NCBI GenBank assembly: GCA_016206285.1
Contig: JACQRW010000007.1
Span: forward strand, 16,455 to 80,454
DNA: 64,000 nt
Source of the DNA: Candidatus Sungiibacteriota bacterium
GTDB lineage: Bacteria > Patescibacteriota > Minisyncoccia > Sungbacterales > HO2-52-23
Direction of reading: 5' to 3'
Under the pieces are notes generated by a model that searched no databases, was not told the origin of the DNA, and was given only the letters and a program-made list of their open reading frames with translations. Position 1 is the first letter of the stretch. Every line of letters starts with the position of its first letter. Made by a program: the position numbers and the translations under genes. Positions 6,012 through 64,000 of the stretch are shown here, in pieces.

Positions 6012-7790
6012 ATGTGCGGCATTATTGCTTTAACCGGAAACAAGATACGCGAGATATCGCCTTCGCACATTGATGCGATGCTGGACTTGCTTTCCCACCG
6101 CGGGCCCGATGACCGCGGGCTTTTACCATTTTCCTCGTGCATACTGGGACAGACGCGGCTTTCGATCATTGATCTGTCCGGCGGGCATCAGCCCATGAAA
6201 GATAATCAAAAAAATATTGCGGTTACATTCAATGGGGAAATTTACAACTACCGCGAACTCAAAACCGACCTTGAACAAAAGGGGCATGTTTTCTCAACCA
6301 AGTCAGACACTGAAGTGATCCTGAAAGCATATATTCAATACGGCATTGACTGTCCAAAATATCTTGAAGGCATGTTTGCATTTGCACTCTGGGACGAAGA
6401 AAAAAAGATGCTTTTCGGCGCACGGGATCGTTTTGGTGAAAAACCCTTGTACTATGCAAAAACAAAATCAGGAGACTTTATATTCGCATCCGAGATAAAA
6501 GCGCTGCTCGCCTCGGGCACCATTGAGCCGGTTATCAATAAAGAAGCCCTAGACATCTATTTGAGCCTGGCATATGTACCGCCGCACATGACCGTCTATG
6601 AAAATATTTCCGTAGTGCCGCCGGCTTCATGTTTCGTGCTTAAAAACAGCGAGATCAAGATAGAAACATACTGGGAACTCACAAAAAAAGAGGTGTCCGT
6701 TACCTACGCGGACGCCAAAGAGGAAGTAAGAAGGATGCTCGAACAGTCAGTCAAAAAAATGATGGTCGCGGATGTGGAAGTGGGCGCGCTGCTGTCCGGC
6801 GGGGTGGACTCCACATTGGTCACCTGCTTTAGCCAGCAAACATCAAGTTTTCCGATTAAAACTTTTTCAGTCGGGTACGAACACTATATAAATGAACTGC
6901 CGTTTGCCGAACAGGTGTCGAAGAAATTCCACACCGACCACCATACGCTCCAGGCAACCGGAGAGATGGCGGAAAGTTTGCGTATGGTTTGCGGGTCGCT
7001 GGACGAACCTCACGGGGATCCCTCCAATTTTCCCCAATATCTCGTTTCTCAATTCGCCGCCTCAAAAGTAAAAGTGGCTCTTACCGGCGACGGCGCAGAC
7101 GAATTATTCATGGGATACGGCTGGTACTGGAAACACCTCAATCTCTCATGGAAAGCTGATTTTTGGGAAAAGGCATTTCCGCGGCCGTTCAAAAACTTTA
7201 TCCGAAGTATCGAAATCTTCACCGCAACCCAAAAGCGCGGACTGCTCGCCCACTCCCCCCTTCGCGCCGCTGACTTTATTCCGGAACATATTCTGCATGC
7301 GGCCGGAGACGATATCGAAAAAATAAATCTTTTCGATCTCTCTTTTTATCTGCCCGGCAAGCTTTTGTCAAAAGTAGACCGCACCGCCATGATGAGTTCG
7401 CTGGAAACCAGATGTCCGTTTCTTGACCGCGAACTTGCCGAGTTTGTCTATAACCTGCCGCGAAATTTCAAGACGGACAAAAACAGCGGAAAGATCATCC
7501 TAAAAGACATCTTGTCCGATATCATGCCGCGCGATTTCGTATACCGCAAAAAACAGGGATTCGGAGCGCCGGTCAAAGTCTGGCTTGAAATCGAGACCAT
7601 GAGAAAGCTCGTTGCCGAAACCTTTGACAACAATGCGCCATTCTATGAATACATAGATAAAGAAGAGGTGCAGAAACTGCTTAAAAATTTTTACAGCAAA
7701 ACAGACGAGACGGTATATTATAAGATATGGACACTGCTTTGTCTCGGCCTTTGGTTTCAAACTCATCCTTCGACTAGCTCAGGATTGTAA
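6012..7790 (+). CDS. asnB: Asparagine synthase (glutamine-hydrolysing) family amidotransferase (AsnB/WbpS-like)
   Basis: N-terminal MCGI (class II glutamine amidotransferase Cys nucleophile), SGGVDS PP-loop and the whole AsnB architecture. Start taken at the internal ATG encoding MCGIIAL. Confidence 0.85.
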   Translation: MCGIIALTGNKIREISPSHIDAMLDLLSHRGPDDRGLLPFSSCILGQTRLSIIDLSGGHQPMKDNQKNIAVTFNGEIYNYRELKTDLEQKGHVFSTKSDTEVILKAYIQYGIDCPKYLEGMFAFALWDEEKKMLFGARDRFGEKPLYYAKTKSGDFIFASEIKALLASGTIEPVINKEALDIYLSLAYVPPHMTVYENISVVPPASCFVLKNSEIKIETYWELTKKEVSVTYADAKEEVRRMLEQSVKKMMVADVEVGALLSGGVDSTLVTCFSQQTSSFPIKTFSVGYEHYINELPFAEQVSKKFHTDHHTLQATGEMAESLRMVCGSLDEPHGDPSNFPQYLVSQFAASKVKVALTGDGADELFMGYGWYWKHLNLSWKADFWEKAFPRPFKNFIRSIEIFTATQKRGLLAHSPLRAADFIPEHILHAAGDDIEKINLFDLSFYLPGKLLSKVDRTAMMSSLETRCPFLDRELAEFVYNLPRNFKTDKNSGKIILKDILSDIMPRDFVYRKKQGFGAPVKVWLEIETMRKLVAETFDNNAPFYEYIDKEEVQKLLKNFYSKTDETVYYKIWTLLCLGLWFQTHPSTSSGL

Positions 7791-45518: not shown

Positions 45519-48500
45519 TTACTGAGACTGCAAGCTCTCCTGTGTCGTACCGATTGCAGGCAGACCCTTGACCTGATATCCGTTGGTGAAATCAAGATCC
45601 TGGATCGTATTCTGCGTGGTGGTTGACACTGGCGACCAGATGAACGCATTGTTTGTGTCTGCATCCACCGAGCTGGTCACTGCCGTGCTGCCCTGGCTTC
45701 CTGCTTTCGACATGAGCGTTGCCGTGTTTACCGGATACGCCGAGTCACCTCTCAAGTTAACCGTAATGGTGTCCTTGCTGTTGGTGTTTGTCGAAACATT
45801 TGCCGCGGTTGCACGAAGCTGGAAGTAGCGTGTCGAACCATTCGGGACGATATAAGTCGTCGTTGCGCTGCTGTTGCAGCTTGTCTTGTCAGGATAGATC
45901 GAGATCGTTCTCGGACCCGCTGCGGTTGAAGACAACCCGTTGAAGCAGGTACCTGCGTTGACCAAACCGGTTGCGGAGAATGTCGAGTCAATCGTCGAGA
46001 ATCCTGAGTCAGTGTACGCATATACTGCATACGCGGAGGTCGTCGCCATGAGCGATGAGGAACCGATAGCAAACGAGAACTTATACAGTGCTACGTCGCC
46101 ATTCTGAGCTTTTACGCTGAACTTGTAGAGAATGTTGTCTGCTTTGCTGCTGACAATCTTCTCTGCGGAGCTCAATGCAATATAGCTTACGATCGGATAT
46201 GACCTCATGATCCGTACTCCGGCTGATGCCGAATCCGCGCTGGTCGGGGTAATGGTAGCTCCTGATGCAACACCGGTTCCGTAGTTACCGTTTACGCCGT
46301 TGTTTCCTCCGTCGTAATCAACAATCAACAGATCTCCGGATGCGGTCAGGTTTGCGCTCGGACCGATTGCCGAGATATCACCCTTGATGACCAAAGTCTT
46401 AGATCCGCCTTTTGGAATACGGAATGCTCCTGCCGTGATCAAGCTTGATGTCGCGTTGTCTCCTGATCCGAATGATGCGGTTCCGACAAGCGCCATGGTG
46501 TCTGCATCGTACAGAGACACTTTGTTGTCGGCCAAATCGTTCGGGGTGTTTGAAGCAACACCGGTCAATTGCAGCGCAATCTGCTTGACATCGACATCTT
46601 CATTCACTGCGCTGTACTTGATGCGCGCGAGTTCAACTCCGGTTGTGCCTCCCGTGACAATCGCGTAGCCCGGGCTGTTGGTGTCAAGTACTGTCGAGAG
46701 AGTTCCGCCCGATGATGCCGTCATTTGCTGGCCTGCCGCATCGGTGAATGTCTCGGCAATAGTTTGTCCGCTGCCCAAGCCAGTCACTCCGGTAAAGGAT
46801 GCGTTCTGTCCCGCATCAATACCCCACTGGTACACTCCGGTTGATCCGCTGCGGACATCACACTTCATGGAGAGCGTCTTTGAGTTCCCCTTGGCCAAGA
46901 CCAAGCCAGTTCCGTCAAAGGTAATGCTCGTGGAAGATGCAGTGTCGGTTGATACCGGATTCTTCTTATTGCTGCTGTTTACTGAAGTGGTTCCGTCATA
47001 GAGCTGACAATTGGTCAGATCGTTGCGGTTTCCTGAAACTGCGTTGAAGTAAAGCGGGATTGATACCACGCGCACATCTTCTCCGGATGCTGTCGTGTCA
47101 AAGATGTAGCGTGCGAATTCAAACTGCAAGGATCCTGCGATCACGGTCTGCGCAACCGGTACGGTTGCGACGTTTACCGTCAAGGCGCCGGTCTTTACCG
47201 TCATGGTGTTCATGGCGATTGCCGCTGCCGGTGACGGGGTGATCGAGTTGCCGCTGTTCTGACCTTTTGCCGAAGCAAAGTCAGTGCTTGGGGTGGTTGA
47301 TGCCTGGATCGTGACGTTGTTGGTTATGTCAGATCCCACCTTACCTTTGAGGGTATAGGTGTGAAGACCAACCGGGAAGGTAATGCTCGTTGAGAATACC
47401 AACACACCGTCAGCAGAACCGCCTGTATCAGTCGTGTCAGATGCGTTTCCGTCAACCGGACCGCCAATGACACTGCCGTTTTCGTCAACCAATGAAACGT
47501 TGGTCAGATCATCTACATCCATCGTAGCAACTGTCTCATCAACAAGCGTTACGTTGAATGCCACTTTGGTTACCGTGATCGGCTCACCCTTTACATCCGT
47601 AGTAAATGCTCCCAATGGAACATTGTTTACGTTTACGGCAATGTTTTGGGCAGCTACCGCGTTTGAAGTGCTGACGCTGATCGTACCTGCGGATACGGTT
47701 ACCGTACCGCCGGCATACCATGGATCCTCACTCGAAGTGAAGTTCGGGCTGGTGTGATCAGCAGCTGCCGTGCCGGTCTGCGGAGGCATAATGCCGAATC
47801 CGTAGGTCTGGCCGTTCAAGCCGATGTCAACACGTTTTGCGATATCGAAGATAATGGTGCGTCCGGATCCTCCGATAATGTCACCCTTGATCGAAAGTTC
47901 CTTTGAAAATCCCTTGTCGATCAAAAGTCCCTGACCGCTGTTGTCGGTAAATGTCGTTGTATAGTACTTGCCATCCGAGCTGACCACCGCGTCATATGCG
48001 ACGCCGTCTACATAGGTCTTGACGTTAGCAAGATCTCCTGATGCAACCGATCCAGTCTGGTTCCAGCGGATGTACTTGAGATATACCTTTTCCGCAGATC
48101 CTGCAGTTACGCGGACTGCTGAAAATGTGTATGCAAGCTCACCGATGTTTTTCGTGATCGCCGCACCCGGATCAGTTGATCCGCGCTGCATGCTAACCGT
48201 TCCGATTGAGACCGTACTGTTGTAGGTCTGGCCATTGCCGACAATCGGTGCTGTTGCGGAAACACCGTTTACTGCGGTTGTTCCTGCGTTTACTCCAACC
48301 AAAGCAATCTGAATCACCTGGCCGTTGTATGAGCTGTTTGCCGCAACCATGTTACCTGCAAGGGTAAGTGTTCGCGTGCTGCCAGCTTTTACTACTACCG
48401 GTTCATTCAATAATGCCTGATGAAGCGAGTTCAAAGTCTTGGAAAGGCCGAGCTGCGCTCCGTTCTCATCCAGCAATACTACGCTATCAAGCGCCGCATC

Positions 48501-49238
48501 GTTGGAAGGTCCTTTGCGCTCTACGGTGAGACCGGTAATGGTTACATCACCGTCTGCAGAAGCCATAAATTTGACTCGGGTAAACGGTACGCGTGCCGCT
48601 CCGCCCGGAGCAAGGTTTGCAACCGGCTGGTTTGCGTCAAGCATGACGCTCAATCCCGTTGCTACCGGTGTTACCGGCGTTGCAGGCGTTCCCGGGACAC
48701 CCGGGACACCTGGAACTCCTGGAATACCCGGTGTTGCCGGTGTCGGCGGAGTTGGTACCTGTGCTACCTGCGCATTGTATGCTGCGCGCGATATCGGTCC
48801 GAAGTATCCGGCTGCCGGAGAAACTCCTGCCGCTACCTGCCATTTAGCTACTGCGGCTCTGGTCAGGACACCAAAGTATCCGGTTGCCGCCACATTCAGA
48901 TACCCTCCTGCAATCAAGGTGTTTTGAAGGCAAGTGACATCATCTCCCCGAGATCCGACTGTCAGACTCCGGGTGAAGGTGCACTTTGCCCCGGTCATTG
49001 CGCCAGTTCCCGTACCCTGCTGCAATGCCGCGATCTGTGCTTGGAGCGCCGCGATCTGTGCCATCAGCGATTCGATGGTAACAGTCTGTGCGACTGCAGC
49101 CAACGGCATGATGATCGCCGCTCCTGAAATCGTGATGGCCGTTGCCAATGCCGCAACTTTCTTAAGTCCGCGGCTGCCACCACTAAAGGATAATATATTC
49201 ATAATGTTCGTATATTTTGCCATCCGCTGGCAGAACAA
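45519..49238 (-). CDS. Very large (1239 aa) secreted cell-surface protein: signal/TM, coiled-coil, peptidoglycan-binding domain, Pro/Thr linker, Thr/Ser/Gly/Val-rich beta-rich body (S-layer-like)
   Basis: LAAVAQT signal; IAALQAQIAALQQG coiled-coil; GSRGDDVTCLQNTLIAGGYL...GYFGVLTRAAVAKWQ PG_binding_1-like domain; PTPPTPATPGIPGVPGVPGVPGTPATPVTPV linker. Confidence 0.7.
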   Translation of the reverse strand: MFCQRMAKYTNIMNILSFSGGSRGLKKVAALATAITISGAAIIMPLAAVAQTVTIESLMAQIAALQAQIAALQQGTGTGAMTGAKCTFTRSLTVGSRGDDVTCLQNTLIAGGYLNVAATGYFGVLTRAAVAKWQVAAGVSPAAGYFGPISRAAYNAQVAQVPTPPTPATPGIPGVPGVPGVPGTPATPVTPVATGLSVMLDANQPVANLAPGGAARVPFTRVKFMASADGDVTITGLTVERKGPSNDAALDSVVLLDENGAQLGLSKTLNSLHQALLNEPVVVKAGSTRTLTLAGNMVAANSSYNGQVIQIALVGVNAGTTAVNGVSATAPIVGNGQTYNSTVSIGTVSMQRGSTDPGAAITKNIGELAYTFSAVRVTAGSAEKVYLKYIRWNQTGSVASGDLANVKTYVDGVAYDAVVSSDGKYYTTTFTDNSGQGLLIDKGFSKELSIKGDIIGGSGRTIIFDIAKRVDIGLNGQTYGFGIMPPQTGTAAADHTSPNFTSSEDPWYAGGTVTVSAGTISVSTSNAVAAQNIAVNVNNVPLGAFTTDVKGEPITVTKVAFNVTLVDETVATMDVDDLTNVSLVDENGSVIGGPVDGNASDTTDTGGSADGVLVFSTSITFPVGLHTYTLKGKVGSDITNNVTIQASTTPSTDFASAKGQNSGNSITPSPAAAIAMNTMTVKTGALTVNVATVPVAQTVIAGSLQFEFARYIFDTTASGEDVRVVSIPLYFNAVSGNRNDLTNCQLYDGTTSVNSSNKKNPVSTDTASSTSITFDGTGLVLAKGNSKTLSMKCDVRSGSTGVYQWGIDAGQNASFTGVTGLGSGQTIAETFTDAAGQQMTASSGGTLSTVLDTNSPGYAIVTGGTTGVELARIKYSAVNEDVDVKQIALQLTGVASNTPNDLADNKVSLYDADTMALVGTASFGSGDNATSSLITAGAFRIPKGGSKTLVIKGDISAIGPSANLTASGDLLIVDYDGGNNGVNGNYGTGVASGATITPTSADSASAGVRIMRSYPIVSYIALSSAEKIVSSKADNILYKFSVKAQNGDVALYKFSFAIGSSSLMATTSAYAVYAYTDSGFSTIDSTFSATGLVNAGTCFNGLSSTAAGPRTISIYPDKTSCNSSATTTYIVPNGSTRYFQLRATAANVSTNTNSKDTITVNLRGDSAYPVNTATLMSKAGSQGSTAVTSSVDADTNNAFIWSPVSTTTQNTIQDLDFTNGYQVKGLPAIGTTQESLQSQ

Positions 49239-51855: not shown

Positions 51856-52557
51856 ATGAAAAAAGAAACATTTTCACAAAAGCAGGACCGGACGGACAAA
51901 ATTTTCTCACTGCTGAAAAAAACTTACCCGGACGCAGGCATGATCCTCCGGTTTTCCAACCCGTGGGAACTGCTGGTCGCAGTCATTCTCTCCGCACAGT
52001 GCACCGACAAAAAAGTAAACGAGGTAACTGAAAAACTTTTCCAAAAATATCGAACGCTCGATGCCTACGTCCGGGCAGGCACGAGCACGGCCGGAAGAAA
52101 AGAATTTGAACATATGATCCACTCCACCGGCTTCTATCGTGCAAAAGCAAAACATATTCTTGCAACAGCAAAACTTGTCAAAGAAAATTTCAACGGAAAA
52201 ATTCCGAAGACAATGGAAGAGTTGCTCACGCTCCGCGGCGTGGCGCGCAAAACCGCAAACGTAGTTCTGGGAAATGCGTACGGAGTTGTCGAGGGCATTG
52301 CCGTGGACACGCACGTCGCCCGCCTCTCGCAACGCCTCGAACTTTCCGCAGCGCATGATCCAAAAAAAATTGAACGCGATCTCATGGAGCTGCTCCCAAA
52401 AAAAAATTGGTTCCGCTCCACGTATCTGCTCATCGACCACGGCAGAAAAATCTGCACCGCAAAAGACCCGCGATGCGATCTGTGTCCATTGCAAAAAATT
52501 TGTCCGTCAGCATTCCAGTTTCCAAGATTTGAAAAGAACGTAAAACATAACACATAA
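51856..52557 (+). CDS. nth: Endonuclease III (DNA-(apurinic or apyrimidinic site) lyase)
   Basis: HhH motif LRGVARKTANVVL and 4Fe-4S cluster loop CTAKDPRCDLCPLQKIC. Confidence 0.85.
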   Translation: MKKETFSQKQDRTDKIFSLLKKTYPDAGMILRFSNPWELLVAVILSAQCTDKKVNEVTEKLFQKYRTLDAYVRAGTSTAGRKEFEHMIHSTGFYRAKAKHILATAKLVKENFNGKIPKTMEELLTLRGVARKTANVVLGNAYGVVEGIAVDTHVARLSQRLELSAAHDPKKIERDLMELLPKKNWFRSTYLLIDHGRKICTAKDPRCDLCPLQKICPSAFQFPRFEKNVKHNT

Positions 52558-52568
52558 CACGAAACACT

Positions 52569-52928
52569 ATGGAGCGGAAATTCCACGCTATCCTGAGAGA
52601 AAGAATGGATGACTTTGTACATTTGGTATACAAAGTTACAAAACAATTTCCAAGAGAAGAATTGTATGGATCAACTTCACAACTGAGGCGAGCATCGCTT
52701 TCAATCATCTTAAACTATATTGAGGGATACGCCCGCAAGAGAACACTTGTGAAAATCAATTTCTTTGAAACATCATTCGGCTCGCTTCAGGAAAGCAGAT
52801 ATCTCTTGGAATTTGCGAGAAAAGAAAACTGGCTTACCGAAACTGAATATGCTACCACATCACGCATAGCAGAAGAAATTGCCGCAATGCTTTGGAAGAC
52901 GATAGAGCATCTTCATCGTGATATGTGA
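52569..52928 (+). CDS. Four-helix-bundle protein (23S rRNA intervening-sequence protein / Avd-like family)
   Basis: KVTKQFPREELYGSTSQLRRASLSIILNYIEGYAR is a close match to the TIGR02436 consensus. Confidence 0.7.
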   Translation: MERKFHAILRERMDDFVHLVYKVTKQFPREELYGSTSQLRRASLSIILNYIEGYARKRTLVKINFFETSFGSLQESRYLLEFARKENWLTETEYATTSRIAEEIAAMLWKTIEHLHRDM

Positions 52929-53250
52929 TACGTTTTACGTGTATCGTTTCTCTTGTGGATAACTTTTCTTGACGTATTTTTATATATCTGGGATAATAAG
53001 AATCAGAAATTAGATGAATGATACATTTTCTGATTTCTCGCTTTGCAAAGCCAATATATTCGTTCTTTTTCAGAAATTTTTATTCAGATGATTTCTTTCA
53101 TCTCATTTCCGTTCTTTCAAAAAAACTCGCTGTATGCACAGCATATAAGCGAAAGTTATCTCTCTTTTCTATCGGTATCATTGCCGCAAAACAGGTCCGT
53201 AATCAAAACCTGATTTGCAAAATACGAATTTGTTTCGCGGTAATGATACC

Positions 53251-53287: not shown

Positions 53288-56011
53288 TTATCTTTTTGTC
53301 ATGGCGTGAGTCCGCGGCTTCACCTGTTTTACTGCAAGTTTTTTTGCATGCGGCGAGATGGTAATCTTGCCGTCTTTGACGCCGATCAAAATCGAGTCTC
53401 CGGAAACTATTTTCCCGGAAATAATTTCATGCGCAAGCGGATCGAGAATCATGCTCTGGATCGCGCGCTTGAGCGGACGTGCACCATAGTTTGCATCATA
53501 TCCTTTTTCCGCGATCACGCTCTTCACCTCGTCCGCAAACGCAATCGCGATCTCGCGGCCCTCCATGCGTTTGGCTACGCGATCCAGCTGTATCTCGACA
53601 ATCTTTTGAATCGTCGCCGGATTTAATGAGGAGAAGAAAATAATCTCATCAAGACGGTTGAGAAACTCGGGGCGGAAGTTGCGCTCCAACGCCCGACGGA
53701 TCCGTCCTTTCATGTCGGACTCTTTGCGCTCGCGCGTGTCTTCGTCTATTGTCATGAATCCGATCTGACCCATCTCGTGTACAAATTCGCTGCCTACGTT
53801 GGATGTCATCACAATGATCGTATTTTTAAAATTCACGGTGCGACCCTTGGCATCCGTCAGGCGGCCGTTGTCGAGAATCTGCAAAAGAATATTAAATACT
53901 TCCGGATGCGCTTTTTCAATTTCGTCAAAGAGTATGACCGAATACGGGCGATGCTTTACGAGCTCGGTGAGCTGCCCGCCCTCTTCATAACCGACGTATC
54001 CCGGAGGCGAGCCGATGAATTTTGCCGCAGTGTGACGCTCCATATATTCGGACATATCAATCCGGATGAGCGCCTTTTCATCGCTGAACAAAAATTCCGC
54101 GAGCGCTTTGGCAAGTTCTGTTTTGCCAACGCCTGTCTGCCCCAAAAACATGAAGGAGCCGATGGGGCGGTTCTCTTCGCCGATGCCCGCGCGGGAGCGC
54201 CGCACCGCGGATGCGATCCGTTCGATTGCTTCGTCTTGGCCGATCACGCGCTTCTTGAGTTCATCTTCCATCTTGATCAGGCGCGATGCCTCGGTTTCGA
54301 TAATTTTGGTCACGGGAATGCCGGTCCAGCGCGCAATCGCGGCTGCGATATCTTCTTCCGTAACTTCGCCGCGCAATAAATTCCGTGAATTCTGCAAGCT
54401 CACCAAACGCTTTTCCGCATCTTCCAGCTGTGTTTCAAGCTGCGGAATTTTCCCGTACCGCAATTCGGCAACCTTGCCAAACTCACCGCTGCGCTCCGCA
54501 ATATCCGACTCCTGGCGTGATTCGTCAAGATTTTTTTTGAATGCGCGTACTTCCTGAATCGTCTCTTTCTCTTTTGCCCATGTTTGCTCAAGCCCGCGGA
54601 TGCTTTCCTGCAGATCCGAGATTTCCTTTTCGATTTTCTTGAGGCGCTCTTTTTGCTTGCGGTCGGATTCTTTTTTGTCCGCCTGCGAAGATTCACTTAC
54701 CAAACCCGCACGCTCGATTTCAAGCCGCATGATTTTTCTCCGCGTCTCGTCCAGTTCTTTTGGCAGACTGTCCATCTCAAGCCGGAGCGAAGATGCAGCC
54801 TCATCCATCAGGTCAACTGCCTTATCCGGCAGGAATCGGTCCGTAATATACCGCGAAGACAACTGCGCCGCGGAAACCAAGGCCGCATCGGTAATTTTTA
54901 CGCCATGATGCGCCTCATACTTGCGCTTCAGCCCGCGCAAAATTGCAATCGTGTCTTCAACTGAAGGCTCATCCACATACACCGCCTGGAAACGCCGGGC
55001 AAGAGCCGGGTCCCGTTCAATATAGCGCTGATATTCGCGCAATGTGGTGGCACCGATTGCATGCAGCTCTCCGCGCGCAAGCGCAGGTTTCAACATGTTA
55101 GACGCATCAATGGCGCCTTCAGCGGCACCCGCACCAACAAGGGTATGCAGCTCATCAATAAAAATAATATATTTGCCGCCTCCGCGCTCGATTTCGCGCA
55201 CCACCGCTTTTAGGCGGTCTTCAAACTCTCCCCGGTATTTGGTACCCGCCACAATAGCTGCAATATCAATCGCGATTACTTCTTTTTCCTTCAGCGTCTC
55301 CGGCACATCACCCGCCACAATTCGCTCCGCAAGGCCTTCAGCAATCGCGGTCTTGCCTACCCCGGCCTCGCCGATCAGCACCGGATTGTTTTTAGTCCGG
55401 CGCGAGAGCACCTGCATTACGCGGCGGATTTCGTCGTCCCGGCCGATTACCGGATCAAGCTTTTCGGCACGCGCAAGGCGGGTCAGATTGCGCGCATATT
55501 TTTCCAGTACGTTATATTTTGTCTCCGGCTCCTGATCCGTAATGCGCTGGCCTCCGCGAAGCTCCGCGAGCGAGCGCAAAATAACTTCTTTTTGCAGGCC
55601 CTCGCGCGTCAGTATGTCTTTTGCCCGGGACTGCACATCCATAAGAGCCAGAAATAAATGCTCGGTCGAGATAAACTCATCTTTGAGCTGGCTGGCCTCC
55701 CGATGCGCCTGTTCGATCACCTTTGCAAGATCTTGGGTCAGGTAGACCTGCCCCAACGGAGTTGAGACCACGCTTCCACGCGGCATCGCGTCAAGCGCCT
55801 CGAACATACGATCCGCAAATGCCGATATGTCAATCTCCAATTTTTCTAAAATAGCATCAACGGTGCCCTCCTCCTGCAGCACCAGAGCCGCAAGCAAATG
55901 CAGCGCATCAATCTGCTGATGCGAACGTTCCAAAGCAAGGTCATGCGCCCGCTTAAGGGCTTCCTGCGCTTTAACCGTAAATTGTTGAAATGGCGGAAAT
56001 GATGGTGGCAT
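53288..56011 (-). CDS. clpB: ATP-dependent chaperone ClpB
   Basis: N-domain, two AAA+ modules (GEAGVGKT and GQTGVGKT Walker A motifs) and a long coiled-coil middle domain; 907 aa. Confidence 0.9.
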
Positions 56012-56179: not shown

Positions 56180-56911
56180 TCAAAACGTCAATCGGCGGAA
56201 TGTTTCCACGTACTTTATGCGTTTTTTCTTTCCGGCCTGCCTGCCGGTAGGCACGGCATCGCGAGCGCGATCGCGCATTCGTTTTTCCATTGCTTTGACA
56301 TCCTTGATCTGGCTTTCGTGAGCCCGAAGAGCTTGTATTTTTTTGTCCATGGTCTTTGACACGTCAACCCACAGATTCGGCTTGTCCGTACCCCAAAACC
56401 AGACTTCTTCAATCTGATGGGGCATGATATTGGCTTTGGCAAGCTCCGGGAAAAAACCAAGTGAACCTGCTGCGGGATAAATTGAATCAAACACCGCTTC
56501 AGCAGTTATCCGATGATCACGATGAAACCTGCCAAAGAGATCAAAGGCATGGTTTCCCGGGTCGTACGCAAGCACAATATCAGGGCGCGCTTCGCGTATC
56601 ACGCGCGTAAGCATTTTGCGCAATGCGAGCGTATTTTCAAGAGACCCGTCAGTCTGGCGAAGAAAAATAACCTCATCCACACCGGCTATTTTTGCCGCAG
56701 TGCGTTGTTCGGCCTCGCGCATGAGCGTCATTGCACGTTTTGACTGGCGCACGTTATGCACCCCCTTCTCACCATTCGTGATAATGCAATAGACTACTTC
56801 GTTACCTTCGCTGGTCAGCCGCGCAACAGTAGCGGAGCATCCGAAGTCAACATCATCGGGATGCGCGGAAAAAACCAGAAATTTTTTCTTTGATCCGACC
56901 AGCGATTTCAT
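56180..56911 (-). CDS. PIG-L/LmbE-family N-acetylglucosaminyl deacetylase
   Basis: VFSAHPDDVDFGCSATVARL (HPDDE-like motif) and overall LmbE layout. Confidence 0.75.
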   Translation of the reverse strand: MKSLVGSKKKFLVFSAHPDDVDFGCSATVARLTSEGNEVVYCIITNGEKGVHNVRQSKRAMTLMREAEQRTAAKIAGVDEVIFLRQTDGSLENTLALRKMLTRVIREARPDIVLAYDPGNHAFDLFGRFHRDHRITAEAVFDSIYPAAGSLGFFPELAKANIMPHQIEEVWFWGTDKPNLWVDVSKTMDKKIQALRAHESQIKDVKAMEKRMRDRARDAVPTGRQAGKKKRIKYVETFRRLTF

Positions 56912-58188
56912 TTCCGTTCCTCAAGTTTTACTTTCACGTCAAATTCCTTGTCATCTCGAAATATGCGCAACGTCACCGTTTCTCCGACTTTGTGCTTCTG
57001 GATCAACGCAGACAAGGGATGATCTATATCAATCCGTTCGCCGTCAAAGAACAAAATAATATCGCCTTCTTTGAGACCGGCAACCGATGCAGGACTTCCG
57101 GTCGCGACTCCTCCTTCGTTCTCGCCTTTTGCGACCAGCGCTCCATAATCGCGCTTCAACCCTTGTTTTGCAGCCAACTCTTTAGAGACAATCACATAAC
57201 GCACCCCAAGAAACGGATAAATAAAACGACCGTATGCTTTTATATTCTCCAGATCGCGCTTTGCCTTGTTAATCGGCAAGGCAAACCCAATACCCTGCGC
57301 GCCGCTTGCAACCGCCGTATTGATCCCAATCACCTCGCCGCGAATATTGAGCAAGGGCCCGCCGGAATTGCCAGGGTTAATCGCAGCATCAGTCTGGATC
57401 AACTCCTGCAAAGCTTCCGGTCCCGAAGCTCCGCCCTGCGCCACTATGGAGCGCTGCAAGCCGGAGATTACGCCAACCGAAACCGTATTGCGGAACTCGC
57501 CAAGCGCGTTGCCGATTGCGATCACCGTCTGGCCGATTTTCACCTGGCTTGAGTCGCCCGGACGCAGCGACGGAAAGTTCGATCCGACCACTTGAAGCAC
57601 GGCCAGGTCCTGGATCGGGTCGCGCGCCAGTACTTTTGCCGGCAGCTTTTTGCCGTCATTCATGAGTACCGTATAGCTCGCTTCTTTGTCCGCAACCACA
57701 TGCTTATTGGTAATGATCAATCCATCAGACGAGACAAAAAAACCTGTTCCCGCGGACACATCCTGTTTCCGAGTTCCTTTTTGGCGCAGCTGCGGAATCT
57801 GAATACTTGGTCCGTTATCTCCAAAAAATTGTTTGAACAAGGGATCATCTCCAAACGGGTCAACATAATATTGCTCCACAATCGGCACATCTTTGCTGGC
57901 AACCACGCTTACCACTGCCGGAGATGCCGATGCAACCACCTTTTCAACCGTGTCCTCCGGACGCACCGGAACCACAACATCATCTTTTATTTTTTCCGGA
58001 GTGGTCTGCGTTATTTTTTCAAGAAATGACGGCCTATGGTATACGATAGTTCCACCGCTTCCCGCCTCCGGCCCGGCAATAAGCGGCCCAAATACACTCA
58101 ATGAAAGAATTGTCCCGATAATCGAAACCACAAAACTTAAAACCACGCTGAATAAAATTAACTGCCGCGTTGTTGGTTGGTGTTCCAT
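56908..58188 (-). CDS. htrA: HtrA/DegP-family serine protease with N-terminal TM helix and C-terminal PDZ domain
   Basis: Catalytic GNSGGPLLN (Ser), His and Asp regions; PDZ-like C-terminus (GDIILFFDGERI). Confidence 0.85.
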   Translation of the reverse strand: MEHQPTTRQLILFSVVLSFVVSIIGTILSLSVFGPLIAGPEAGSGGTIVYHRPSFLEKITQTTPEKIKDDVVVPVRPEDTVEKVVASASPAVVSVVASKDVPIVEQYYVDPFGDDPLFKQFFGDNGPSIQIPQLRQKGTRKQDVSAGTGFFVSSDGLIITNKHVVADKEASYTVLMNDGKKLPAKVLARDPIQDLAVLQVVGSNFPSLRPGDSSQVKIGQTVIAIGNALGEFRNTVSVGVISGLQRSIVAQGGASGPEALQELIQTDAAINPGNSGGPLLNIRGEVIGINTAVASGAQGIGFALPINKAKRDLENIKAYGRFIYPFLGVRYVIVSKELAAKQGLKRDYGALVAKGENEGGVATGSPASVAGLKEGDIILFFDGERIDIDHPLSALIQKHKVGETVTLRIFRDDKEFDVKVKLEERK

Positions 58189-58190
58189 AT

Positions 58191-58424
58191 TTATATCGCC
58201 TCTACTCCGATAATCCCAGGCACCCGCATTTTAAGCAGCTCTTCAACGCCTCCTTTTAGAGTAAGCACGCTCAAGGGGCACCCATCGCACATGCCAAGCA
58301 TTTTAACATAAACTATCCCGTTTTCAAGCCTGACAAACTCAATATCCCCGAGATGCTGCGCCAGCATCGGCCGTATCTCTTCAAGCGCTTCTTTGACTTT
58401 TTTGAACATCATCGGCTGTTCCAT
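58191..58424 (-). CDS. nfuA: NifU C-terminal-domain (Nfu-type) Fe-S cluster carrier protein
   Basis: GIVYVKMLGMCDGCPLSVLTLKGGVEELL (CxxC motif of the Nfu domain). Start site uncertain (M23/M27). Confidence 0.6.
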   Translation of the reverse strand: MEQPMMFKKVKEALEEIRPMLAQHLGDIEFVRLENGIVYVKMLGMCDGCPLSVLTLKGGVEELLKMRVPGIIGVEAI

Positions 58425-58774
58425 CCTATTATTTTTCCTAAAATGTGCTGTTTGTTTATGACTCCGAAATTCCTGCTCGATGCCCCCCACAAAACCACAC
58501 TTCCAACATCATATCCGTCTACCCGCACACCAAGAACCTTTTTTACCAAAATCTGTCCGGAACCATTCGGGTTGCCAAACACGAGAAAATCCCCCGCTCC
58601 TATAGACCCCCATCCGCTTGCCCAATACAACTTGCCCTGCACTAAACTGGGCCAGCAGCTTTCACCGCTCACCCGCACCCGAAATAATATTTTCTTAATA
58701 GAGCTTATCGGTAATAGCCTGATATGCTTCATACCGTTCCGGAACTTTTTTTGCCTCGTAAAATATTTTTGCAA
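58409..58774 (-). CDS. Signal-peptidase-I (S26)-like small peptidase, candidate NiSOD maturation protease (SodX-like)
   Basis: SGESCWPSL (box B-like, Ser nucleophile), GDFLVF (box C), ILVKKVLGV (box D Lys) and GASSRNFG (box E-like). Lies immediately downstream of sodN. Start codon uncertain; overlaps sodN 3' end. Confidence 0.45.
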   Translation of the reverse strand: MQKYFTRQKKFRNGMKHIRLLPISSIKKILFRVRVSGESCWPSLVQGKLYWASGWGSIGAGDFLVFGNPNGSGQILVKKVLGVRVDGYDVGSVVLWGASSRNFGVINKQHILGKIIGWNSR

Positions 58775-59153
58775 TCCCGTCTACCGCCTCAACTAATTTT
58801 TGCGCCGCATCCGCGTTGACCTCCTGCTTATTTTTTGAACACAGCTTTACGGCATCCCAGAACAAAACATGCAGATTCGGAAACTGTTCCAGATGCTCCG
58901 ATTTAAAAAAATCCGTCCAGAGAATCAACAATTCTTTCTTACAAAGCTCGGCGTGCTGTTCTTTTACCGCGATACGCCGGCTGATCATGTTGGCGTGATT
59001 TGCAATCGAATGGCTGTCCGTGCTTTGGGGCGGCTGTATTTCATCCAATTGCTGTACCATCCGCGCCACAGTCTTTGCTGCGATCTTTGCCGGAGTCGGA
59101 TCATACACACCGCATGGAATGTCACAGTGGGCATCTGCAGTAATTGTAGGCAT
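58695..59153 (-). CDS. sodN: Nickel-containing superoxide dismutase precursor
   Basis: HCDIPCGVYDP Ni-hook motif preceded by a short leader (MPTITADA). Start taken at the ATG with a GGAA ribosome-binding site; upstream in-frame extension to 59309 is unlikely because it spans the dyad-repeat array. Confidence 0.75.
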   Translation of the reverse strand: MPTITADAHCDIPCGVYDPTPAKIAAKTVARMVQQLDEIQPPQSTDSHSIANHANMISRRIAVKEQHAELCKKELLILWTDFFKSEHLEQFPNLHVLFWDAVKLCSKNKQEVNADAAQKLVEAVDGIAKIFYEAKKVPERYEAYQAITDKLY

Positions 59154-59211
59154 AATTTCCGATAGATATTTTACAATTTGCATAGAAGTGATATTAATTT
59201 TTAATTTCCAG

Positions 59212-59311
59212 TTTTGAATTTTGAATGAAATTTGAATGACTGAATGAGGACTCGAAGCGCCGTTTCTTAATTCGCTCATTCTTACATTCATTCGAAATTC
59301 AGAATTCAAAA
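59212..59311. promoter_or_regulatory. Dyad-symmetric array of GAATG/TGAAT pentamers (left) and CATTC/ATTCA (right) flanking a 26-nt centre, upstream of sodN and downstream of the ferredoxin gene
   Basis: ttttgaattttgaatgaaatttgaatgactgaatgag ... ctcattcttacattcattcgaaattcagaattcaaaa: imperfect 37-nt inverted arms built from about 4 pentamer repeats each. Confidence 0.5.
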
Positions 59312-59324
59312 TTAGAAATGAACA

Positions 59325-59588
59325 TTACGGGTATATCTGATTTCCTTCTTCGTCAAAAATAAGTATGGCTTGGGTTGGACATGATTGAGCGGCCAGCAAG
59401 ATTGTTTCGGCATCCGCCCCCTTGTCGTTGTAGACTATCGCTTTATTTTCCGAATCAAGCTCAAACACTCCCGGCGCTACTGCAATGCACGACGCGGCCC
59501 CAATACACAAATTCCGATCGACAATAATCTTGCCGATCTTGAGCGTTTTTTTGGGAGGCAGCTGATTGTCTTCTTGTACAGGTTCCAT
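59325..59588 (-). CDS. fdx: Single-cluster 4Fe-4S ferredoxin
   Basis: CIGAASCIAVAP...C...SCP cysteine pattern; 87 aa. Confidence 0.75.
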   Translation of the reverse strand: MEPVQEDNQLPPKKTLKIGKIIVDRNLCIGAASCIAVAPGVFELDSENKAIVYNDKGADAETILLAAQSCPTQAILIFDEEGNQIYP

Positions 59589-59598
59589 CTCTTATACT

Positions 59599-59958
59599 CT
59601 ACACCATTCTTTGAATCGCCTCAAGAGCGGCCAAAGCACACTTCATCCGTGCCGGCATAACAGTAATACCCAGAAGTCCCTCTATATGCATATATGTCAT
59701 CTCTCGTATCTCTTGTTTCGTTTTACCTTGTATATCCTCAAATAGAAGTGATGCCGCAGCCCGGCTGATCACGCATCCTTCATGCTCAAAACATACCCCC
59801 GCAATCTGCTCACCGATAAAACGCATACGTACCGTAATCACGTCTCCGCACAAGGGATTTGAGTACCGTTGCTCCGCGCTAAACTCCGGCCATAGCCCGT
59901 AGTTGCGGGGGCGATAGTAATGCGACATGATTTTTTCGGAGTAAAGAGAATCGGACAT
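59599..59958 (-). CDS. sufU: SUF-system Fe-S cluster assembly scaffold/sulfur-transfer protein (SufU/IscU-like)
   Basis: NPLCGD, EHEGCVIS and RMKCA conserved Cys motifs. Confidence 0.8.
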   Translation of the reverse strand: MSDSLYSEKIMSHYYRPRNYGLWPEFSAEQRYSNPLCGDVITVRMRFIGEQIAGVCFEHEGCVISRAAASLLFEDIQGKTKQEIREMTYMHIEGLLGITVMPARMKCALAALEAIQRMV

Positions 59959-60049: not shown

Positions 60050-60469
60050 ATGCGTGACTATATAAAGCGATTTGGCTACTCTCCGGTAGAAAGGGCAATC
60101 GCCCGCATTATTATGGCTACAGAAATTTACCGGGATTGCCGCGATCTACGAGCGCGCGCAGAAAAGATAAGGAAATTTCAACATGATCCTGATAGATTTT
60201 CAACTGTTGCCGATAGTATAGCGCGAATAAGAGAACAATACGATAAGATATTTGCGCTTGTGGGCACCCCGGACGAATGGGGAAACTCGTGCAAAAATCC
60301 CCAAGCCGTTATTGCAGAGGCGATCATTGCAGTCGTAGAGACATATGGAAGCGCATATGGTGATCTTCTTTTCAGGATCAGAGATGCGAAATCTCTTGTC
60401 AATCTATGTACGCATGGTCTCACAGATCAACAACGTAAAATTTTTGCCGACTGGCACAATTATTTATAA
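60050..60469 (+). CDS. Hypothetical protein (139 aa) on opposite strand within the suf cluster
   Basis: ORF with AGGAA ribosome-binding site about 8 nt upstream; no recognisable motif. Confidence 0.45.
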   Translation: MRDYIKRFGYSPVERAIARIIMATEIYRDCRDLRARAEKIRKFQHDPDRFSTVADSIARIREQYDKIFALVGTPDEWGNSCKNPQAVIAEAIIAVVETYGSAYGDLLFRIRDAKSLVNLCTHGLTDQQRKIFADWHNYL

Positions 60470-60579: not shown

Positions 60580-61803
60580 CTATCTGATCGCTAACAGAGC
60601 CGAAGCCTTTTCAATCCCCTCTGTCAGACGCTCAACATCTTCTTTCGTATTATACACCCAAAAACTTGCGCGCGAAGTTGCCGGTACGCCAAGGTGCCGC
60701 ATGAGCGGCTGCGCGCAGTGGTGGCCGGCGCGGATGCAGATGTTATCGCGATCGAGGATCGTAGCAAGATCGTGCGGATGAATACCTTTGAGCATAAAAC
60801 TTGCCACGCCGCCACGGTCTTTCGCATCAGACGGACCAAATATTTTCATGCCCTTTATGCCGCCGAGTCGGGAAAATAATTCGGTTGTCAATTCCTCGTC
60901 GATTTTTCTGATCTCGTCAAATCCAATTTTTTGAATATATGTGATTGCTGCAGCAAGCCCGACTGCCCCGCTCACATTCGGCGTACCCGCTTCAAACTTT
61001 GCCGGCAATAAGGCAAATTCCGTATGTTCAAAAGAGACCTCGTTAATCATGCCCCCGCCGCGCAAAAACGGCGGCATATCTGCCAGTAATTCTTCACGGC
61101 CATACAGTACGCCAATACCGGTCGGCCCTCCCATTTTATGTCCGGAAAATACCAGAAAGTCACAGCCGATGTCTTGCACGTCTGTCGCCAGATGGCCGAT
61201 GCTTTGAGCAGCATCCACCAAAAATAAAATATTGCGCTCGCGAAAAAGTTTTCCCATCTCCGCAACCGGATTGATCGTACCCAGCACGTGCGATACATGC
61301 GAAAACGCCGCAAGTTTCGTCCGTGGATGCAGCATGTTAAACACCGAGTGTTTAACATCGATCAGCCCGTCCTTATCTGCATCAACGACATCCAGTACTA
61401 TTCCTTTTTCTTCCGCCAGCATCTGCCACGGCAGCATATTGGAGTGATGCTCCGCACGAGAAATCAAAACATGATCGCCTTCAACGAGTATGCTCTTCCC
61501 AAGCGCGTACGCAACCAGATTAATACCTTCGGTCGTGTTGCGCGTAAAAATAATCTCATTCACCGACCGGGCATTTATAAATGCCCGCACCGTTTCCCGC
61601 GCAGCCTCGTATTTTTCCGTTGCCAATTCCGACAGCGCATAAATTCCCCGGTGCACATTTGCATGCGCTTCCTCATCATGTTGCCGAACCGCATCAATCG
61701 CCTGCTGCGGCATCTGGGCCATAGCCGCAGAATCCAAATAGACCAAGGACTTGTCCTGTTTTTTGTAACGGTTAAAGATGGGAAAATCACTTTTATAGTT
61801 CAT
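60580..61803 (-). CDS. sufS: Cysteine desulfurase SufS (class V aminotransferase)
   Basis: FSGHKMGGPTGIGVL (PLP Lys) and RAGHHCAQPL (catalytic Cys loop). Start taken at the ATG for MNYKSDFPIF. Confidence 0.85.
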   Translation of the reverse strand: MNYKSDFPIFNRYKKQDKSLVYLDSAAMAQMPQQAIDAVRQHDEEAHANVHRGIYALSELATEKYEAARETVRAFINARSVNEIIFTRNTTEGINLVAYALGKSILVEGDHVLISRAEHHSNMLPWQMLAEEKGIVLDVVDADKDGLIDVKHSVFNMLHPRTKLAAFSHVSHVLGTINPVAEMGKLFRERNILFLVDAAQSIGHLATDVQDIGCDFLVFSGHKMGGPTGIGVLYGREELLADMPPFLRGGGMINEVSFEHTEFALLPAKFEAGTPNVSGAVGLAAAITYIQKIGFDEIRKIDEELTTELFSRLGGIKGMKIFGPSDAKDRGGVASFMLKGIHPHDLATILDRDNICIRAGHHCAQPLMRHLGVPATSRASFWVYNTKEDVERLTEGIEKASALLAIR

Positions 61804-61892
61804 GCAAGATCTTGAAAAAAATATGCAGTAGTATATCTTAGACAAAATGTACCTTCAAAAACTGGCTATATAAAAATAAGGAGCTACGTGCA

Positions 61893-62336
61893 ATGGCGAC
61901 TATTATCTACGCTCATCCGATTTTGACCGTGATTATAATTCTTTATATCCCCTTCTTAGTATACTCCCTCTGCCTATATTATCAGCGGTGCATAAAACCG
62001 GAATTGGGTCGATCAACGCCTCTGGGTCTATTTCTTCTTTTCGTAAATGGCGTAACCGCGGTATGTCTTACTCCATGGATTATGGCGCTCAACTCTCTGT
62101 TTTTCAGATTGCCTTATTATATAACCCGCATGGGCGTACAACAAAAGATCGCAAATATCATTGTTCACTCTCCGCTCTTTGCTGTTATTACGTATATCTT
62201 ATGGATCATCATAAACTTTTTAACCGAATACACTCCGATTCAGTTCGAGAGAGCAGCACTATGGACTGTCTCTTTCATCTGCAGCATATGGTTCAATATC
62301 ATCTTTGAGATAATATGGCCACACTACGAAAAATAA
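61893..62336 (+). CDS. Small hydrophobic membrane protein (147 aa, about 4 TM), AT-rich
   Basis: Strongly hydrophobic ORF on the opposite strand between sufS and sufD; no motif. Confidence 0.4.
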   Translation: MATIIYAHPILTVIIILYIPFLVYSLCLYYQRCIKPELGRSTPLGLFLLFVNGVTAVCLTPWIMALNSLFFRLPYYITRMGVQQKIANIIVHSPLFAVITYILWIIINFLTEYTPIQFERAALWTVSFICSIWFNIIFEIIWPHYEK

Positions 62337-62346
62337 AGGCCACGGT

Positions 62347-62934
62347 TTACGCTATAGAACTTTGAAAAAATTTTCTCCGATCTTCGTCTGCCAAACTCTT
62401 CACCGCATCCCGGAAAAATTCCGCGAGGAGCAAGCGCTTTCCCTCCTCCTCCGCAATACCGCGGCTTTGCAGATAAAACAATTGCCGCTCGTCAATCCTG
62501 CCGATGCTCGTGCCATGCGACGCCTTTACCTCGTCAGTCAAAATTTCAAGATACGGACACACCTCCGCTCGGGCCTTTGGCGAGACCAGCAGCGCTTTTG
62601 CAAGCAGATACGAATCCGCCCCCTTCGCTCCTTCCCGTATATCAAGCATCCCCTTTACCGTCAGCCGCGACTCATCAAACAGCGCGGCTTTTATAATCGC
62701 CCGGCCGTACGTCTCCGGCGCTTCATGTACAATCGCAATATTCATTTCAGTCTCATCCTTATTTCTGCCAATGTAAAGCATCGTTACTTCCGCCCTGCTT
62801 GCCCGTCCCGCCAACCGGATATTCAGATCAACCGTCTTCGGCAAGTCATCAACAAAAAGAAAAACCTTAACAAAAGCTTCCCGATCTTCCGAAAGAACGA
62901 TTTCTTTTTTTAAAATTCTTGATTCATCGTTCAT
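62347..62934 (-). CDS. sufD: Fe-S cluster assembly protein SufD (short form)
   Basis: C-terminal SHGTSIGRIDERQLFYLQSRGI motif typical of the SufB/SufD C-terminal helix region. Confidence 0.7.
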   Translation of the reverse strand: MNDESRILKKEIVLSEDREAFVKVFLFVDDLPKTVDLNIRLAGRASRAEVTMLYIGRNKDETEMNIAIVHEAPETYGRAIIKAALFDESRLTVKGMLDIREGAKGADSYLLAKALLVSPKARAEVCPYLEILTDEVKASHGTSIGRIDERQLFYLQSRGIAEEEGKRLLLAEFFRDAVKSLADEDRRKFFQSSIA

Positions 62935-62944
62935 AAGCAGTTCT

Positions 62945-64000
62945 TTACCCCACCGCGCCTTCCATTTCCAGTTTTATCAAGCGATTCATCTCAACTGCAT
63001 AATCAACCGGCAGGTATTTCATGAGCGGCTCGAAGAAGCCGGTTACGATGAGGGAAGATGCCTCCACTTCGGACAGGCCGCGCGAGCGGAGATAAAACAA
63101 TTCTTTCTCGCCGATCTTCGATACTTTTGCCTCATGCTCCACGCGCACGTCCTCTTCATCTATCTTTAAAGTGGGGTAGGTATCGGAGCGGGACTGCGGA
63201 TCAAGAATGAGGGCATCGCACCGCACCGTGATGCGCGAGTTTTTTGCTCCCCGAACCGCACGGCTCAAACCCCGATATGAAGTTCTGCCGCCGCCGAACG
63301 AAACCGATTTTGAAATTACATTTGATCTCGTATCCGGCGCCATATGTATCATCTTTGCTCCGGCATCCTGATGCTGGCCCGGACCTGCCATGGCGATCGA
63401 GAGCGTATCCGCGCTCGCTCCCCTGCCCGAGAGAAAAACAGACGGATACTTCATGGTTACTTTTGATCCAAGGTTGCAATCAATCCATTCCACAAATGCG
63501 CCCTCTTCAGCACGCGCACGCTTGGTCACCAGATTGTATACGTTGTTCGACCAGTTTTGCACGGTCATGTACCGCACCCGGCTGTGCGGCTTTGCAATAA
63601 TCTCCACCACTGCGGCATGCAGCGAATCAGTGGCGTAGACAGGAGCGGTGCATCCCTCCAGATACTGCACCTCGCTTCCCTCGTCCGCGATAATAAGCGT
63701 ACGCTCGAACTGGCCGAAATTTTGCGCATTGATGCGGAAATACGCCTGCAGCGGCATCTCCACCTTCACGCCCGGCGGCACATAAATAAAACTACCGCCC
63801 GACCACGCCGCGGAGTTGAGTGCGGCAAATTTATTATCTCCCATGGGAATCACCGTACCGAAATATTGTTTGACCAGATCGGGATATTCCCGCACCGCCG
63901 TATCCATATCCACGAATATCACTCCCTTGCGCAGCAGGTTTTTGCGCAACGCATGGTAGATCACGTCCGAATCATACTGCGCTGCGGCACCGGCAAAAAA
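62945..64000 (-). CDS. sufB: Fe-S cluster assembly protein SufB, N-terminus beyond window end
   Basis: [25 protein letters not shown] and the beta-helix core ([24 protein letters not shown]). Frame is open to the window edge. Confidence 0.85.

Follow-up and report, generated by a model that had tools for sequence, protein, structure and literature searches.

The 64,000-nucleotide (nt) stretch of Candidatus Sungiibacteriota DNA analysed here (contig JACQRW010000007.1, positions 16,455 to 80,454 of the forward strand; in the following simply the window) carries two small adjoining genes on its minus strand. The first, sodN (58695..59183), encodes the 162-residue precursor of a nickel-type superoxide dismutase (SOD; nickel SOD, NiSOD), and the second, a sodX-like gene (58409..58732), encodes a soluble S26-type Ser/Lys peptidase of 107 residues. 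Both lie inside a suf(BDSU)-fdx-nfu-htrA-deacetylase cluster, where fdx is a ferredoxin gene. We read the pair as a two-gene NiSOD module, made up of the SodN precursor and its putative SodX-type maturation peptidase, and put the probability of this reading at roughly 85%. It is supported by the identities of both proteins, the conservation of the catalytic dyad, the A/V-x-A sequence at the putative cleavage site, the fold, purifying selection, the co-inheritance of the pair and the gene order. The original prediction for this locus had pointed to the motifs HCDIPCGVYDP, SGESCWPSL, GDFLVF, KKVLGV and GASSRNFG, and all of them are present on the minus strand.

In the case of sodN, the product scored 150 bits (E=6.6e-44) against the Pfam model Sod_Ni (PF09055; cut-off 25) and 165.4 bits against TIGR02753 (cut-off 90). 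The identity proposed for this gene is thus confirmed far above the cut-offs of both hidden Markov models (HMMs). In the alignment to the Streptomyces NiSOD structure 1q0d, His1 of the mature enzyme falls on H19 of SodN, and the Ni-hook HCDIPCGVYDP read from the sequence (59097..59129, minus strand) corresponds to residues 1-11, with mature His1, Cys2, Cys6 and Tyr9. Compared to 1q0d, the window SodN has an insertion of ~12 residues after helix 1. SodN is a member of the NiSOD family and a predicted nickel-binding superoxide dismutase.

The longest open reading frame (ORF) containing sodN spans 58695..59309, and the preferred coding span is 58695..59183. With this start, ATG 59183, the leader peptide is MQIVKYLSEIMPTITADA (59130..59183, minus strand), with predicted cleavage after Ala18. 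The start was preferred because MQIVKYLSEIMPTITADA keeps the leader pattern of the relatives upstream of the second Met. Leaders in twelve close relatives are 11-26 residues long and share a common pattern, e.g. KQYFSDIFSEVVADA and TKFIPTISVDA. A start at ATG 59153 would give a protein of 152 residues with the 8-residue leader MPTITADA, and was considered less likely, as the residues upstream of it are conserved. The sole support for it was a weak sigma-70-like match, and such matches occur at chance level (6 found, 4.4 expected). The original prediction had spoken of a short leader; 18 residues are likelier than 8. It had also extended the interval of the pair to 59320, a position that falls in the upstream spacer, outside sodN.

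Regarding the cleavage site, 77 sodN loci from many phyla were compared. Residue -1 to His1 was Ala in every one of them, and residue -3 was Ala in 59 and Val in 18. Ala-x-Ala is the classical cleavage rule of S26 peptidases, known from established signal peptidase work. With A/V-x-A before His1 in 77/77 loci, the SodN leader site therefore fits the S26 rule.

The sodX-like product is identical to database protein P0001, and a first database search with it gave four relatives only, including P0001 itself. Against Pfam Peptidase_S26 (PF10502) it scored 25.5 bits (gathering score 22.9), over profile positions 22-80 only, so that the small ORF came through the S26 model search which had been proposed as a check on it. 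A direct phmmer search against the PDB gave no match, and a profile search was needed. ORFs adjoining sodN were taken from 80 genome loci; 25 of them were aligned, and a larger alignment held 65 sequences. Residues of the peptidase are numbered here on the 107-residue form. The profile of the 25 sodN-adjacent homologues matched Staphylococcus aureus SpsB (E=4.8e-14) and Escherichia coli LepB (2e-9) in the PDB, with the GESM-P and VKRV motifs aligned. The same profile retrieves 1059 database proteins, many of which are named 'nickel-type superoxide dismutase maturation protease'. All 25 homologues match the SodX equivalog model TIGR02754 at E<=0.01, and the match of the window protein to this model covers positions 2-88 of 90.

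Gly23, Ser25, Pro28, Lys64 and Gly99 are invariant among the 25 aligned peptidases, and Ser25 and Lys64, as well as Gly23 and Pro28, are also invariant among the 65. The alignment check of the Ser/Lys dyad was thus positive at both depths. Ser25 in GESCWP (codon 58658..58660, minus strand) aligns to the GESMDP of SpsB and is the predicted nucleophile. Lys64 in VKKV (codon 58541..58543, minus strand) aligns to the VKRV of SpsB and is the predicted general base.

At the structural level, an AlphaFold2 model built from the 65 sequences is all-beta (predicted local distance difference test, pLDDT, 78.8; predicted template modelling score, pTM, 0.71), with low confidence for residues 1-13. The top 30 Foldseek matches of the model comprise the LexA C-domain, UmuD', lambda cI and signal peptidase I, without exception proteins of the Ser/Lys-dyad type. 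These matches have a query TM-score (TMq) of 0.5-0.66 and a probability of ~1, but E values of only ~0.03. In comparisons with ten orthologues, the ratio of nonsynonymous to synonymous substitution rates (dN/dS) was 0.19-0.43 in the eight computable pairs, and the reading frame is intact in all of ~30 relatives. Judged from sequence and model, the sodX-like ORF is a real S26 peptidase under purifying selection and a predicted Ser/Lys enzyme.

Several observations weigh against a SodX-type maturation module. Firstly, the window protein missed the cut-off of TIGR02754 (21.8-22.3 bits; cut-off 63.25). Secondly, box E in canonical sodN-linked peptidases follows the pattern G-D-N-x(3)-S-x-D-S-R-x-F-G, whereas in the window protein it is VVLWGASSRNFG, without GDN and with only S-R-x-F-G kept. 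The general S26 form of this box is G-D-N-x(3)-S-x-D-S-R-x-x-G. When aligned on the Arg, the first Ser is replaced by Gly and the Asp by Ser. The two replaced residues presumably correspond to Ser278 and Asp280 in E. coli LepB numbering, and the box-E Ser/Asp are thought to support the catalytic Lys. With such a degenerate box E, peptidase activity could be reduced or altered. Thirdly, no Shine-Dalgarno sequence was evident before sodN or sodX. Fourthly, a regular-expression search of the 64-kb window for the nickel transporters NiCoT, CbiM and HupE, which is a weak test, gave two matches, both in implausible ORFs, and thus no nickel transporter. Finally, a hairpin-bearing spacer of 141 nt lies between sodN and the upstream suf genes, and a single transcript across it is not assured.

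In the Sungbacteria-like clade, box E is replaced by the motif SWGSSS[RK]DFG, which is conserved clade-wide. The low TIGR02754 score can be traced to the replacement of GDN and of the Ser/Asp positions in box E. Of the signal-peptidase boxes B-E listed in the original prediction, the motifs of boxes B-D are thus in place and box E is there by half, its SSRNFG tail being kept and GDN and Ser/Asp being lost. Because the cut-off was missed and box E is altered, we use the label SodX-like and make no equivalog call. On sequence evidence, the peptidase is a divergent SodX subfamily, SodX-like by predicted function and by context and not by the curated equivalog cut-off. The claimed sodN-sodX arrangement stands accordingly as far as the linkage and the co-inheritance with sodN are concerned, and not as far as that cut-off is concerned.

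The degenerate box E and the low score against the curated SodX model would also suit a decaying or catalytically dead relic, in which case some other protease, or none, would mature SodN. Additionally, sodX evolves much faster (55-61% identity) than ClpB (92-93%) and SufB (97%). However, a relic is hardly expected to keep its frame in all ~30 relatives, with Ser25, Lys64, Gly23 and Pro28 invariant, a dN/dS of ~0.3 and the replacement motif SWGSSS(R/K)DFG conserved across the clade. We therefore regard decay of the peptidase gene as improbable, and a functional SodX-like peptidase as the better reading.

More insight on the partnership of the two genes can be gained from related loci. The closest SodN sequence is 83% identical, and the syntenic ClpB and SufB are 92-93% and 97% identical, respectively, in metagenome-assembled genomes (MAGs) from groundwater. 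The labels of the MAGs with the closest homologues read Candidatus Sungbacteria/Sungiibacteriota or Parcubacteria, with Saccharibacteria used by some third-party assemblies; these matches place the window in the genome of an uncultured, ultra-small member of the candidate phyla radiation (Patescibacteria). The order suf-fdx-sodN-sodX-nfu-htrA(-clpB) is kept in 8 genome loci. Metagenomes were scanned with an Nfu alignment, and the following counts for the slot between fdx and nfu cover loci that hold both of these genes. Roughly 19 metagenome loci hold sodN and sodX in this slot, and the order sufB-D-S-U, ferredoxin, sodN, sodX, nfu, htrA, PIG-L deacetylase, clpB was found in ~27 Sungbacteria-like loci. 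In three loci the slot is empty and there is no peptidase; two of these (L096, L098) have ~8 nt between the ferredoxin stop and the nfu ATG, and the third (L105) has a spacer of ~75 nt. In one further locus (L091:2799-3383, plus strand, contig Ga0209542_10040312) the slot holds a 194-residue Fe/Mn-type SOD (Sod_Fe_C, 81.7 bits), again with no peptidase, and the ferredoxin there is 91% identical. Among the 77 sodN loci, an S26-like ORF was found within the locus in 75 and directly downstream in 32. The peptidase is therefore present with sodN and absent from the empty and the Fe/Mn-SOD slots, which suggests that sodN and sodX are gained or lost as a unit. Of the contextual evidence gathered here, this joint gain or loss speaks most strongly for the view that the peptidase serves SodN.

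These data also bear on the explanation that the small ORF is the type I signal peptidase (LepB/SipS) that the cell uses for its secreted proteins in general, and lies beside sodN by coincidence. Features that it has in common with the type I signal peptidases SpsB (4wvh) and LepB (1b12) and the LexA/UmuD' C-domains are the Ser/Lys dyad, the all-beta S26 fold, the motifs G-x-S-M-x-P and K-R-[IV], and a substrate rule of Ala-x-Ala. Its score against the generic signal peptidase I model TIGR02227 (27.8 bits) is slightly higher than against TIGR02754 (21.8 bits). Yet the former score lies below the TIGR02227 cut-off of 47 bits. The protein has only 107 residues and, by reading, no hydrophobic N-terminal anchor, its residues 1-13 being polar and of low confidence. 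Its linkage to sodN, seen in 75/77 loci and across phyla, and its loss along with sodN where the slot is empty or holds an Fe/Mn SOD likewise speak against coincidence. Thus, a general signal peptidase appears still less probable than a relic. Unlike SpsB and LepB, the window peptidase of ~100 residues lacks both a membrane anchor and the beta-sheet domain II, its box E is reduced, and a single dedicated cytoplasmic substrate is proposed for it.

The ORF that holds the peptidase motifs spans 58409..58774 from a TTG start or 58409..58732 from an ATG start. Relative to the sodN stop at 58695, TTG 58774 gives an overlap of 80 nt and ATG 58732 one of 38 nt, so that the range of 38-80 nt originally given for the overlap was exact. 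From ATG 58732, the 3' end of sodN and the 5' end of sodX overlap out of frame (58695..58732, minus strand). In the frame comparison with close relatives, an equivalent of this ATG was found in 10 of 11, and the frame is open from it in all 10, even where the spacer of the relatives measures 109-124 nt. In the eleventh relative (L012), sodX starts just after the sodN stop. GTG 58678, a non-overlapping start suggested by the TIGR02754 alignment beginning there, was rejected because the upstream LFRVRV is conserved through synonymous codon changes and because, in relatives, the frame extends without a stop to the ATG within sodN. LFRVRV forms beta-strand 1 of the AlphaFold2 model.

As a separate observation, in three relatives (L001 ~3007-3117, L003 ~6465-6575, L007 ~589-702) the sodN-sodX spacer is 109-112 nt long, compared to 28 nt in the window, and contains repeat-element-like sequence (...PA[GR]FFTAFRM..., ...IPAKAGIQ...) in frame with sodX. 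This may be an insertion resembling a repetitive extragenic palindrome (REP) or a miniature inverted-repeat transposable element (MITE) that was absorbed into the N-terminal tail of sodX.

On the opposite strand, the ORF 58353..58796 (147 residues) runs uninterrupted from an ATG, with the same antisense frame open in the four closest relatives, but it has no Pfam or NCBIfam match, so that the real homology named originally as a point against the peptidase is lacking, the more distant relatives L004, L006, L007, L008, L085 and L110 have 1-3 stop codons in its frame, and family membership and purifying selection belong to the minus frame; it was rejected as a shadow ORF, and the converse, a real plus-strand gene with the peptidase ORF as its shadow, is extremely unlikely.

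For the NiSOD module, the following sequence of events is proposed. The sodN product would be made in inactive form, as a precursor whose N-terminal leader of ~18 residues ends in Ala-Asp-Ala. The sodX-like gene, which overlaps sodN by 38 nt, is probably translationally coupled to it. The 107-residue cytoplasmic Ser25/Lys64 peptidase would then cut SodN after Ala18 and expose His1, and the exposed His1, with its free amine and imidazole, would build the nickel site together with Cys2 and Cys6. Because the module sits within the tightly packed suf-fdx-nfu-htrA-deacetylase cluster, the cell would probably express its superoxide removal together with the assembly of Fe-S clusters and the quality control of proteins. 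Leader cleavage, nickel loading, co-transcription and a protective role for Fe-S clusters are thus steps that we infer.

In the surrounding cluster, all genes lie on the minus strand. Upstream of sodN are a single-cluster 4Fe-4S ferredoxin gene (59325..59588; Pfam Fer4_13 and Fer4_15), sufU (59599..59958; Pfam NifU_N; TIGR01994 92.0 bits, just below the cut-off of 92.5) and the cysteine desulfurase gene sufS (60580..61845; TIGR01979 542 bits, above the cut-off; Pfam Aminotran_5). These are preceded by an unusually short sufD-like gene of 195 residues (62347..62934; Pfam SUFBD_core; TIGR01981 149 bits, below the cut-off of 222), which corresponds to no more than the C-terminal half of the SufBD core, and by sufB (62945..64000; TIGR01980 523.6 bits, above the cut-off, model positions 120-448). 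The N-terminus of sufB is cut by the window end: its frame is still open at base 64000, and the ORF listing gave a GTG start at 63964. The genes sufB/D/S/U are contiguous, and sufC is not in the window, the cluster being cut by the window end. Two plus-strand ORFs, 60050-60469 (139 residues) and 61893-62336 (147 residues), fill the sufU-sufS and sufS-sufD gaps. Neither has a Pfam match, and the 139-residue one has no tblastn match in related loci; they may be lineage-specific genes or non-genes.

Downstream of sodX follow nfu, for a NifU C-terminal-type Fe-S carrier (58191..58424; Pfam NifU 85.5 bits), an htrA-type serine protease gene with a PDZ domain (56908..58188; Pfam Trypsin_2 and PDZ_2), a PIG-L/LmbE-family deacetylase gene (56180..56911; Pfam PIG-L 104 bits; BshB-like TIGR04001 101 bits, below the cut-off of 182.5) and the chaperone gene clpB (53288..56011; TIGR03346 1232 bits), which is syntenic in relatives and ends the conserved block. 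Every neighbour named in the original prediction, i.e. ferredoxin, SufU, SufS, SufD, SufB, Nfu, HtrA and the PIG-L/LmbE deacetylase, was matched by an HMM. The junctions are tight: sufU and fdx are 10 nt apart, sodN and sodX overlap by 38 nt, the stop of sodX and the start of nfu overlap (through ATGA at 58409-58412, or with ATG 58424 as the start), nfu and htrA are separated by 2 nt, and htrA and the deacetylase gene overlap by 4 nt. The 141 nt between fdx and sodN are the exception to this spacing of <=10 nt. Regarding the Fe-S-protection island that had been postulated, the conserved gene order holds; the protection itself is what we infer from it, with added weight from the comparative data.

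The 141-nt spacer (59184-59324) contains a long imperfect hairpin with 48-nt arms (59201..59322, minus strand). No other inverted repeat in the 64-kb window is as long; the hairpin is unique and built of TGAAT/ATTCA-like units. Its RNA fold has a z of -3.4, no U-tract comes after it, and a terminator scan found no intrinsic terminator in this spacer. Among the relatives, four also have a hairpin in this spacer, though with another sequence (L004, L005 and L006, z -4.3 to -4.6; L002, z -1.8), and four have none there (L001, L003, L008, L010). The hairpin might act as a processing or stability element or as an operator, or be the scar of an insertion.

Coming back to the slot between fdx and nfu, its occupation by two unrelated SOD types in the same Fe-S operon makes it more likely that SOD is functionally linked to Fe-S assembly by Suf and Nfu. 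The Fe/Mn-type SOD in this position would represent natural replacement evidence for such coupling. A bolder proposal, which we put forward tentatively and consider rather doubtful in its full form, is that, in this Sungbacteria-like lineage, the ferredoxin|nfu junction is a dedicated, interchangeable SOD slot and that the accompanying SodX is a streamlined S26 subfamily working without the box-E Ser/Asp. If a dedicated SOD slot were true, superoxide removal would be hard-wired into Fe-S cluster biogenesis.

Elsewhere in the window, Rfam and tRNA scans of the whole stretch found nothing. A stand-alone four-helix protein of the 23S_rRNA_IVP/bAvd-like type (52569-52928, plus strand; 87.8 bits) lies between endonuclease III (51856-52557) and clpB. 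It was dismissed as a marker of a diversity-generating retroelement, there being no adjacent reverse transcriptase and the neighbours being endonuclease III and ClpB. Just downstream of clpB is an inverted repeat with 28-nt arms (53174-53250). In a 1239-residue ORF (45519-49238, minus strand) the only Pfam match was an N-terminal peptidoglycan-binding domain; we take it to be typical of the large surface proteins of candidate phyla radiation (CPR) genomes.

SodX is established as the cognate peptidase that activates NiSOD (PMC3919588; PMC8346466). In Streptomyces coelicolor, as in the window, sodN (SCO5254) encodes a cleavable leader before an HCDxPCGVY Ni-hook and is neighboured by the gene of its small S26 cognate maturase, sodX (SCO5255) (PMC3919588). 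In contrast to S. coelicolor, the window sodN and sodX are co-directional with a 38-nt overlap, the leader probably has 18 residues, the window SodX is without GDN and the box-E S-x-D and misses the TIGR02754 cut-off, and no Nur/sodF context was seen in the window. Prochlorococcus and Synechococcus, with their small, streamlined genomes, use sodN-sodX as their SOD, and the preprotein is not activated without the protease (PMC8346466). The window pair likewise would serve as the SOD of a small, streamlined genome, whereas lineage and habitat (the CPR relatives are groundwater MAGs), the embedding in a suf/nfu operon and the divergent SodX subfamily set it apart.

Within Patescibacteria, NiSOD sequences are nested among those of Chloroflexota, and DPANN archaea have them as well (Sutherland et al., bioRxiv 10.1101/2021.01.12.426412). 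The window SodN is of the same kind as these Patescibacteria clades, and in both cases the nearest non-CPR relatives are Chloroflexota/Dehalococcoidia and DPANN archaea. There is no mention of sodX, a peptidase or a protease in that study (bioRxiv 10.1101/2021.01.12.426412), and thus the SodX subfamily is not accounted for there. Among our loci, archaeal MAGs of DPANN (Aenigmatarchaeota) and of Thaumarchaeota/Nitrosopumilales (L033, L038, L043-L045, L063) also carry sodN with an adjacent SodX-like ORF. These archaeal pairs suggest that the protease travels with sodN, and they fit the published inter-domain transfer of NiSOD. NiSOD has also been noted in a Saccharibacteria genome (PMC6031116), and SODs of groundwater CPR correlate with oxic wells (PMC8672522). 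Among the papers covered by our literature search for sodN together with sufS or Nfu, none linked sodN to suf/nfu genes.

In conclusion, the annotation is correct and mostly ordinary: the system is already known, and it lies in a lineage where NiSOD was already reported. The novelties are modest, namely a divergent, trimmed SodX subfamily, the gene overlap, the conserved suf embedding with an apparently interchangeable SOD slot, and the hairpin 5' of sodN. Current understanding is thus unchanged; the annotation is solid, and what the comparison of loci adds to it is modest.

The genomes of CPR/Patescibacteria are minimal, and these bacteria have long been regarded as anaerobes. A complete NiSOD module that is selectively maintained would imply that this organism invests in a defence against oxygen radicals, and that the enzyme used for this costs it no iron. 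The module is placed in the organism's only Fe-S assembly operon, near HtrA and ClpB. For the family as a whole, the divergent SodX may offer a small and simple system for asking which S26 residues are essential.

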